64,000 nt of DNA from a plasmid, in the sequence record NZ_CP023526.1; one strand, 5' to 3'. The notes beneath the pieces were generated by a model that worked only from the letters and a program-made list of their open reading frames with translations, had not been told where the DNA came from and searched no databases. A program made the translations under genes and the position numbers. This document shows, in pieces, positions 3,060 to 4,266 of the stretch (positions are counted from its first letter, which is position 1; every line of letters starts with the position of its first letter).

Positions 3060-3605
3060 ATGCGACTTTTTGGTTACGCACGGGTATCAACCAGTCAGCA
3101 GTCTCTCGATATTCAGATCCGAGCACTCAAAGATGCAGGCGTGAAAGCGAATCGTATCTTTACCGATAAGGCATCCGGCAGTTCGGTCGATCGGCCCGGG
3201 CTTGATCTGCTGCGCATGAAGGTGGAGGAAGGCGATGCCATTCTGGTGAAGAAACTTGACCGCCTTGGTCGCGACACCGCCGATATGATCCAGCTGATAA
3301 AAGAGTTTGACGCCCAGGGCGTGGCCGTCCGGTTTATTGATGACGGGATCAGCACTGACGGGGAAATGGGAAAAATGGTGGTTACTATCCTGTCCGCCGT
3401 TGCACAGGCCGAGCGCTGCCGAATACTGGAACGCACCAATGAAGGCCGTCAGGAAGCCAGGCTGAAAGGTATCAAATTTGGCCGCAAACGTTCTGTGGAC
3501 AGAAACACTGTGCTGGAGCTTCACCAGAAAGGCACTGGCGCAACGGAAATTGCTCGTCAGCTCAGTATTGCCCGTTCCACGGTTTATAAAATTATTGCTG
3601 AATAG
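3060..3605 (+). CDS. tnpR: Tn3-family serine recombinase/resolvase TnpR
   Basis: [42 protein letters not shown]...[24 protein letters not shown]...ARSTVYKI is near-identical to my recollection of Tn3 TnpR. Catalytic Ser is in the [10 protein letters not shown] motif. True ATG is at 3060, not the track's 2988. Confidence 0.95.
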
Positions 3606-3650
3606 CTTTATTATACGGATACAATCATTAAATATGAACTGGAGGTACAA

Positions 3651-4133
3651 ATGAAAGGATACTTAATTATTTTATTTTTTATTACTGGCACTGCTAACGC
3701 TTCAGAAGCCATATCAAATAAGTACACAATAGATTCGGACAACCAGTTAATATTATCGAATGGAAATATTAAGGCTGTTGGCCATGTACACGCTGTAAGC
3801 GGGGATATGACTATTGATGCAGAAGAAGCTATTTATCATCGTGAAAACCCCAACGATACATATATAACTGCCACAGGGAATCCAATAAAATACAATGGGA
3901 TAACAGAAGACGGTAAACCGTTCTCAGGAAATTCTAAAAAGCTTAAATATACTCCAGAAACAGGAGAGGTTATCCTAACAGATGAGGCTTTTGTTCAGCA
4001 GAATGGAAATACTCTATCGGCCGAAGTAATAACATACAACACCATTACGAAAAAAATGATAGCTTCTGCTGCACCTGGTAAAAGAGTAAGGAGTGTGATT
4101 TATCCTGACAAGGTATCACAGACGAAAAAATAA
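3651..4133 (+). CDS. LptA/OstA-N-like periplasmic protein with signal peptide; passenger gene of the Tn3-like element
   Basis: Signal peptide MKGYLIILFFITGTANA. Body aligns by eye with E. coli LptA (GNPIKYNGITEDGKPFSGNSKKLKYTPETGEVILTDEAFVQQNGNTLSAEVITYN...GKRVRSVIYP vs LptA GKPATFYQMQDNGKPVEGHASQMHYELAKDFVVLTGNAYLQQVDSNIKGDKITYL...GKRVTTVLVP). AT-rich codon usage unlike the flanking transposon genes. Sits where bla is in Tn3. Confidence 0.6.
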   Translation: MKGYLIILFFITGTANASEAISNKYTIDSDNQLILSNGNIKAVGHVHAVSGDMTIDAEEAIYHRENPNDTYITATGNPIKYNGITEDGKPFSGNSKKLKYTPETGEVILTDEAFVQQNGNTLSAEVITYNTITKKMIASAAPGKRVRSVIYPDKVSQTKK

Positions 4134-4228
4134 TTATTCTTAGTCAGCATGCTGAATCTGACAAAAACCATTTACCCAAACAGTAAACTGTTAGGGTAAA
4201 TGGTCAATGTTCCAACACGTAATGAAAG

Positions 4229-4266
4229 CTTAGCGTGAGTTTTCGTTCCACTGAGCGTCAGACCCC
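4229..4266. repeat. Tn3-family 38-bp terminal inverted repeat (right end)
   Basis: cttagcgtgagttttcgttccactgagcgtcagacccc differs by 1 nt from the Tn3 IRR as remembered from pBR322 (cttaacgtgagttttcgttccactgagcgtcagacccc). Confidence 0.85.

Follow-up and report, generated by a model that had tools for sequence, protein, structure and literature searches.

The DNA analysed here is a 64,000-nucleotide stretch of sequence record NZ_CP023526.1, called the window below, which is likely plasmid-borne. Positions 1-4266 of the window hold the right-hand ~97% of a unit transposon of the Tn3 subgroup (full-length element ~4.4 kb), and the passenger gene between its resolvase gene tnpR and its right inverted repeat (IRR) encodes a member of the LptA protein family. 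LptA is the periplasmic bridge protein that carries lipopolysaccharide (LPS) to the outer membrane. Tn3-family elements are recognised by a large DDE transposase, inverted repeats (IRs) of ~38 bp starting with GGGG, the resolvase TnpR with its res site, and a 5-bp target-site duplication. The parts of the element, together with the remnants of it that were recovered from other records, are collected in Table 1.

Table 1. Features of the transposon in the window, and remnants of the element in other records. aa, amino acids; HMM, hidden Markov model.
Feature	Position	Strand	Basis or remark
tnpA, Tn3-family DDE transposase	1-2896	minus	N-terminal 965 codons open throughout
res region, 163 bp, between the divergent tnpA and tnpR	2897-3059		Direct reading; collinear with Tn3 res in the 88% alignment
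tnpR, serine resolvase, 181 aa	3060-3605	plus	Pfam Resolvase, E 2e-40; HTH_7, E 6e-13
Spacer, 45 bp, Shine-Dalgarno GGAGG at 3641-3645	3606-3650	plus	Promoter and terminator scan
Passenger gene, putatively secreted LptA-family paralogue, 160 aa, 483 bp	3651-4133	plus	HMM, PDB match, predicted fold
Near-perfect palindrome, 38 bp, 18-nt arms and 2-nt loop	4167-4204		Repeat search; arms 94% complementary
IRR, Tn3 type, 38 bp	4229-4266	minus	GGGGTCTGACGCTCAGTGGAACGAAAACTCACGCTAAG on the minus strand
Remnant, Lonsdalea quercina	Window 2991-3180 (res and 5' end of tnpR) joined directly to 3623-4129		Followed by 33 bp of IRR at 97%
Remnant, Enterobacteriaceae RIT693			Last ~140 bp of tnpR
Remnant, Enterobacter quasiroggenkampii			3' end of tnpR and spacer
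Remnant, Salmonella plasmid contig			3' end of tnpR and spacer

The tnpA frame scored 1116.8 bits (cutoff 500) against the NCBIfam model NF033527 'Tn3 family transposase', and its DNA is 88% identical to the tnpA of Tn3/Tn2 and 91-94% identical to that of the sister elements compared below. TnpR is identical to Tn3 TnpR at 164 of 181 positions (90.6% amino acid identity) and keeps the catalytic Ser10. Two palindromes lie within res, one imperfect and 28 bp long at 2941-2968 (CGTCCGAAATGTTATAAATTGTCGGACG) and another at 3019-3035; the first resembles resolvase site I and may correspond to that subsite. The IRR sequence occurs once in the window and not at all in 100 shuffles, agrees with the IRs found in a Tn3/Tn2 copy at all but one base (37/38 match), and also borders complete elements in Pantoea ananatis, Serratia marcescens pWVU-009 and Erwinia tracheiphila. 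By the sequences of its transposase, its resolvase and res region and its IRR, the element is placed in the Tn3 subgroup.

DNA homology to Tn3/Tn2 runs at 88% identity over 1-3597, stops 8 bp before the tnpR stop codon and restarts exactly at the IRR. This delimits a cargo module of 630 bp (3598-4228), which is exactly the slot that holds bla in Tn3. One BLAST match, to a Tn2-bearing E. coli plasmid, extended past the IRR as far as window position 4283, and the extra bases proved to be a chance match (AAAGCTAG), so the flank is not shared. Base composition changes with the module: GC content is 0.53-0.56 in tnpR and drops to 0.34-0.39 across 3600-4200, and the passenger gene itself has a GC content of 36.7% (0.294 at third codon positions). 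The spacer ahead of the gene is retained in the transposon copies and in the decayed Salmonella and Enterobacter copies described below.

The protein encoded in this slot was assigned to the LptA family by several comparisons. It matched Pfam PF03968 (LptA/LptD_N) with an E value of 1.1e-17 and 64.8 bits (cutoff 20.4), exceeded the cutoff of the general LptA model NCBIfam TIGR03002 (94.6 versus 71.7 bits), and aligned almost end to end with the crystallised LptA of E. coli (PDB 2R19, E 3.7e-12). An AlphaFold2 (AF2) model built on a 34-sequence alignment of the family is all-beta, with a mean predicted local distance difference test score (pLDDT) of 87.5. When this model was compared with the PDB by Foldseek, the top 10 matches were all chains of E. 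coli LptA, with target-normalised template-modelling (TM) scores of 0.74-0.87 and root-mean-square deviations (rmsd) of 2.0-3.3 Å; the best of them reached TM scores of 0.82-0.87, normalised to the target, and rmsd of 2.0-2.4 Å over ~130 residues. P. aeruginosa LptH ranked next, with the N-terminal domains of LptD and with LptC far lower. The cargo is thus predicted to fold as a beta-jellyroll superposable on LptA. A first-pass annotation of the window had described near-canonical Tn3 tnpA, res, tnpR and 38-bp IRR, all of which were found in place, and had put an AT-rich, secreted, LptA-like protein of 160 aa into the bla slot between tnpR and the IR. That identification was borne out by the HMMs, the 2R19 match and the predicted fold, as the three checks suggested with it gave, respectively, the PF03968 match for the 3651-4133 product, the 88% BLASTn alignment of 1-3597 plus the IRR to Tn3-bearing records, and a confident model with E. 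coli LptA as its best superposition.

The N-terminus of the cargo protein, MKGYLIILFFITGTANA|SE, reads as the n-, h- and c-regions of a signal peptide, and its ANA|S site is conserved in the family. Cleavage by signal peptidase I is predicted after ANA17, and the protein would be Sec-exported and periplasmic. Identity to E. coli LptA is 27% overall and is higher in the edge strands, where 10 of 18 residues are identical (YTIDSDNQ in the cargo and IHIESDQQ in LptA; GKRVRSVIYP and GKRVTTVLVP), making these the most similar parts of the two proteins. Positions I36, F95 and Y114 of E. coli LptA, which reportedly crosslink to LPS, correspond to Y25, Y81 and Y100 of the cargo, and these are invariant or near-invariant in the family.

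The cargo does not occupy the position of the housekeeping gene. Canonical lptA lies in the kdsD-kdsC-lptC-lptA-lptB operon, whereas the mobile gene lies between tnpR and the IRR in the window and in mobile islands in other records, outside that operon. All 5426 complete E. coli genomes surveyed carry canonical lptA; four of them (4/5426) additionally carry the paralogue, in settings that comprise an integrative conjugative element, an island rich in insertion sequences (IS) and a plasmid. On its equivalog score, operon context and copy number, the cargo is not an orthologue of housekeeping LptA. It is a supernumerary LptA-family paralogue that coexists with canonical lptA.

The mobile gene belongs to a small family of its own. 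A word-indexed search recovered 45 clusters at 66% identity or more, and a second subclade, of 47-55% identity, emerged from a profile search, for a total of ~55 clusters; every named cluster is from the Enterobacterales. When 1.84 billion representative proteins were searched with HMMER, only 6 scored at E<=1e-30, after which the scores dropped to the general LptA continuum, and the family is therefore a distinct clade. Its nearest outliers are Serratia proteins labelled 'LptA/OstA family', followed by ordinary gammaproteobacterial LptAs. The clade is isolated, and no donor lineage for the cargo could be named from this exhaustive profile search. Across 13 nucleotide copies (78 pairs), the ratio of nonsynonymous to synonymous substitution rates (dN/dS) had a median of 0.18 and a range of 0.07-0.31, with dS of up to ~1.1. 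The passenger gene is under purifying selection, and at least 40 clusters preserve the full 160-aa frame. Truncated copies also occur, at 136 aa in Serratia pWVU-009 and as fragments from Erwinia aphidicola and Enterobacter.

Full or decayed copies were found in Pantoea, Serratia, Enterobacter, Erwinia, Rosenbergiella, Lonsdalea, Salmonella and E. coli, where the gene carries the automatic label 'lptA' of PGAP/RefSeq. A complete element of 4410 bp with both IRs spans 54534-58943 of a plasmid from Pantoea ananatis NN08200, NZ_CP035035; its left flank reads TATTC and its right flank T+TATTC, with an offset of 1. Serratia marcescens pWVU-009 also has a complete element with both IRs, at whose flanks no target-site duplication was found. 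A perfect 5-bp duplication, AGGTA/AGGTA, borders the sister element of E. tracheiphila, and the lineage therefore transposes. Half-elements without tnpA occur on an Enterobacter bugandensis plasmid and on Erwinia piriflorinigrans pEPIR37. The copies in Lonsdalea, RIT693, E. quasiroggenkampii and Salmonella seemed at first to be chromosomal and unrelated to a transposon, but each retains a piece of the element (Table 1). These tnpR and IRR remnants in decayed copies indicate that the association with the Tn3 lineage is old and that this lineage has been the main vehicle of the first subclade.

The most divergent member of that subclade (66% identity), found in metagenome-assembled contigs from Logan, lies 213 bp 3' of a type VI secretion system (T6SS) cluster encoding VgrG, DUF2169, pentapeptide, DUF3540 and PAAR-like proteins. 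The position downstream of T6SS clusters of the VgrG/PAAR type is often held by effector or immunity genes.

Away from the transposon, the family keeps recurrent company. On plasmid islands of E. coli and Salmonella its neighbours repeatedly include a Shf-type polysaccharide deacetylase, a GT4 glycosyltransferase (capU/rfbU-like) and VirK/DUF535, along with Ail/Lom outer-membrane proteins, ArnT-like PMT_2 proteins, LuxR/GerE regulators and S6/S8 autotransporters. Members of the second subclade (47-55% identity), on replicons of E. coli, Salmonella and Serratia, are separated from the gene ahead of them by 4 bp, where that gene is virK/DUF535, or by 15-171 bp, where it encodes a regulator of the LuxR/GerE type. 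They show no link to the transposon and are often labelled only 'hypothetical protein'; one member lies on E. coli pRHB21-C09_2 (CP057604.1, 56123-56608). Such neighbourhoods are suggestive of a role in envelope or LPS biology.

The explanation that we prefer, with confidence that is about evenly balanced, is that a Tn3-subgroup transposon here carries a mobile, supernumerary subunit that takes part in the Lpt bridge or binds LPS. TnpA would act on the 38-bp IRs in replicative transposition, as is standard for the Tn3 family to judge from homology, and TnpR would resolve the resulting cointegrate at res. The cargo gene was probably acquired from a low-GC source and has then spread among Enterobacterales mainly by means of this transposon. 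Once exported by Sec, its product could dock head-to-tail, via its N- and C-terminal edge strands, onto the LptC, LptA and LptD N-terminal domain of the host, and its conserved aromatic and hydrophobic groove could hold lipid A. By joining the LPS bridge or substituting in it, the protein might then alter LPS flux, the way in which modified LPS is handled, or how well the cell tolerates agents directed at the bridge. The proposal of the first-pass annotation, that such a paralogue could perturb or supplement the Lpt bridge, finds indirect support in the edge strands, the groove residues, the purifying selection and the neighbourhoods; docking to Lpt partners, LPS binding and a resulting phenotype are putative.

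Several observations weigh against this explanation. The cargo scored 63.5 bits against the enterobacterial LptA equivalog NF008143, far below its cutoff of 234, and neither lptC nor lptB was ever found alongside the mobile paralogue. Two parts of E. coli LptA, its N-terminal helix and its C-terminal tail, are absent from the protein, proline stands where LptA has L116, and the V52/F54 pocket region is changed. Since the islands are mobile and mosaic, evidence from neighbourhoods is weaker than that from conserved operons. The window begins inside the element, so that the left inverted repeat (IRL) of this copy, the left flank with any target-site duplication and the final ~36 tnpA codons fall outside it. 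Finally, a scan between tnpR and the cargo ATG detected no plus-strand sigma-70 consensus and no canonical terminator. Read-through from the tnpR promoter is therefore the simplest model, and the cargo is probably transcribed in this way.

One alternative, which we consider unlikely, is that the protein serves as a decoy or immunity factor, a look-alike that moves no LPS but soaks up attackers which act on the bridge through beta-strand addition to LptA or LptD (thanatin-like insect peptides, bacteriocins or secreted toxins) or which, itself insensitive, takes over from a sensitive LptA. Thanatin binds the first beta-strand of LptA and an adjacent pocket formed by I38, L45, V52, F54, V74 and I86, and resistance maps to D31 and Q62 (PMC6235536). 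In the cargo the strand is kept, yet lysine stands in place of V52, tyrosine in place of V74 and serine in place of Q62, F54 falls at a gap in an alignment that is uncertain at this point, and the N-terminal helix is missing. A report on thanatin-derived drugs describes a loss of activity once the identity of LptA to the E. coli protein is below 70% (PMC10254193), and the cargo, at 27%, falls under the limit given there. Many of the hosts are associated with plants or insects (Erwinia, Pantoea, Rosenbergiella nectarea, Lonsdalea and Serratia), but no tie links the carrier bacteria to thanatin exposure. The copy just 3' of a T6SS VgrG/PAAR-like cluster would suit an immunity function, although it is a single, divergent case separated from the cluster by a 213-bp gap. 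A molecular sponge also requires high expression, and no strong promoter was seen; nor did the cargo have any match among the anti-phage defence systems of PADLOC. Among PHROG phage families it had one weak match, to a family of unknown function (E 2e-4).

A similarly small probability attaches to the proposal that the LptA fold has become a carrier for other lipids, shuttling or chaperoning, independently of the bridge, a hydrophobic molecule that the neighbouring virulence genes make or need, such as modified LPS or core variants, another surface glycolipid, or lipoprotein or autotransporter intermediates. This would account for the recurrent linkage with shf, GT4, virK/DUF535, ArnT-like PMT_2 and S6/S8 autotransporter genes, and for the autotransporter that a sister transposon carries in the same slot. 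A precedent may exist in Caulobacter, for which a preprint reports Lpt paralogues that move sphingolipids (bioRxiv 10.64898/2026.04.12.717747). However, the gene is alone in the transposon and its product must therefore rely on partners that every host supplies, and the resemblance of its edge strands to those of canonical LptA argues for docking onto Lpt proteins, as the bridge-subunit explanation has it.

It is rather improbable that the cargo is a functional but drug-insensitive LptA, which replaces host LptA in the bridge and is itself devoid of the thanatin-binding pocket. If that were true, the gene would be a pre-existing, horizontally mobile determinant of resistance to the thanatin class and to other antibiotics under development that target LptA, and insect antimicrobial peptides may have exerted the selection on plant- and insect-associated enterobacteria. 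We regard as decidedly improbable a dominant-negative cap, which would bind the LptC or LptD end and leave the bridge incomplete, throttling LPS export, changing permeability or vesiculation, or serving the selfishness of plasmid or transposon. In favour of such a cap, both edge strands are conserved while pocket and groove residues differ (L116 to proline, V52 to lysine), the cargo is shorter than LptA, and its rarity in E. coli (4/5426 genomes) is compatible with a cost; strong purifying selection in many hosts and retention after decay of the transposon nevertheless indicate benefit to the host over toxicity. An inert hitch-hiker, a decaying or non-functional open reading frame (ORF) that merely fills the cargo slot, would fit the truncated copies but deserves almost no credence, being largely excluded by the selection analysis (dN/dS 0.07-0.31 with dS up to ~1.1), the intact 160-aa frame in at least 40 clusters and the confidently predicted fold.

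The interest of the cargo lies in the target concerned. Canonical LptA is essential to LPS export as a component of the bridge, exists in single copy and is what thanatin-derived antibiotics attack, and a mobile second gene of the LptA family thus bears on that target. The selection on the gene, an active Tn3 lineage in at least eight genera and the company of envelope genes suggest that the LPS bridge can be tuned or protected by horizontal transfer. Should the cargo plug into the bridge, it would give studies of how the bridge assembles and selects its partners a natural tool and would be a candidate for a transferable resistance or tolerance factor; should it do something else, it would represent an Lpt jellyroll put to new use. 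To the first-pass annotation, no Tn3-family element with such a cargo was known. This held in so far as a search of the literature (TnCentral and ISfinder were not covered) for Tn3-borne LptA and for plasmid or paralogous LptA returned nothing that describes the element or the family; it did not hold for the sequence, since the element is not unique to the window and public copies bear the label 'lptA'. What is new is the description rather than the sequence: the element is real, rare and spread among enterobacteria.

Other features of the element and of the window can be added. The 38-bp palindrome falls within the 95-bp tail that separates the stop codon of the cargo gene from the IRR. As RNA, it would form a hairpin of -28.4 kcal/mol (z = -4.56) without a U-tract, which is possibly a transcript 3' end or a stabiliser. 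The Enterobacter, Pantoea and Rosenbergiella copies keep the palindrome, and those of Serratia and Lonsdalea have lost it by deletion; in the remaining non-transposon copies compared, detectable homology ends before this point. A search of 2800-4800 for known RNA families gave only sub-threshold chance matches.

Directly to the right of the transposon, 4786-5525 encode a TacA-like antitoxin (PF08681, E 4e-25) whose gene overlaps that of a TacT-like GNAT acetyltransferase toxin; many plasmids of Klebsiella and Enterobacter carry the pair as well, with 85-92% identity. It is adjoined by an ISNCY-family transposase gene (5710-7068, 452 aa), with a related, apparently disrupted ORF downstream at 7546-7974. 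Further envelope-related accessory genes are clustered at 12055-17467, namely those for a MASE1 membrane sensor-like protein, a protein with an Lnb N-terminal periplasmic domain (14613-15242) and a MipA-family outer-membrane protein (16724-17467). A three-gene efflux set of the MacAB type follows at 21267-25789, comprising an HlyD-family adaptor, a MacB-like ABC/FtsX permease and an outer-membrane efflux protein. The segments 35390-44526 and 50109-55928 contain a pertactin-type autotransporter (914 aa), then three large ORFs without a Pfam match (727, 370 and 906 aa), and, in the same region, an RHS-repeat protein of 1939 aa. In content these segments resemble a toxin or virulence island, possibly of the insecticidal-toxin kind.

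Among known systems, the closest by organisation are the blaTEM transposons Tn3, Tn2 and Tn1. They share the order of leftward tnpA, res, rightward tnpR, a single passenger and IRR, with the IRL ahead of these in the complete copies of the element, together with 88% DNA identity over tnpA-res-tnpR. Where those elements have a blaTEM segment of ~1.17 kb, the window has a 483-bp LptA-family gene and a 95-bp tail bearing a palindrome, so that the complete element measures ~4.4 kb instead of ~4.95 kb and is without an antibiotic-resistance gene. Passengers other than resistance genes are well known in the Tn3 family. One further candidate, Tn5394 of Erwinia pyrifoliae pEP36, likewise combines a plasmid-borne Tn3-family tnpA with a resolvase, and pEP36 is related to pEPIR37, a carrier of a decayed copy. 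It was rejected as the same element because pEP36, despite its tnpA and tnpR, had no LptA-like homologue by tblastn, making Tn5394 a different element.

Nearer than Tn3 are the sister elements of Erwinia tracheiphila pETR004-c, Serratia marcescens pSERAS01 and a plasmid of Enterobacter sp. JJBC, whose transposition modules are 91-94% identical to that of the window. In all of them homology stops at the same point just 5' of the tnpR stop codon, and other genes lie 3' of tnpR. The E. tracheiphila element (NZ_CP089941.1, 28018-35418; 7.4 kb; module 90.8% identical) has the same 38-bp IR, is inserted in a relaxase region and holds a 1102-aa autotransporter in the cargo slot between its IRs. Behind the modules of pSERAS01 and JJBC lie hypothetical and microcin B17-like genes, and no IRR was detected within 3 kb. 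The bla slot of Tn3-type elements can thus hold envelope proteins in environmental enterobacteria, an LptA-like protein in one case and an autotransporter in the other.

The neighbourhoods of the family invite comparison with the shf-capU/rfbU(gtr4)-virK-msbB2 loci of Shigella pWR100 and of pAA of enteroaggregative E. coli (EAEC), since members of the LptA-like family lie within or beside shf/GT4/virK clusters. The shf-gtr4-virK-msbB2 locus of pWR100 contains a predicted LPS glycosyltransferase gene (PMC7355660). The second-subclade gene that begins 4 bp after virK takes the position that msbB2 has in Shigella. In contrast, the gene of the window is alone in its transposon, without those neighbours, and the published loci have no described LptA-like gene.

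At the level of the protein, the comparison is with canonical LptA (E. coli YhbN; PDB 2R19/2R1A) and P. aeruginosa LptH. Like them, the cargo is predicted to be a single-domain, secreted beta-jellyroll of similar length, and the edge strands and aromatic groove positions of canonical LptA are conserved in it. It differs from canonical LptA in being encoded by a low-GC, mobile and supernumerary gene that lies outside the kdsC-lptC-lptA-lptB operon.

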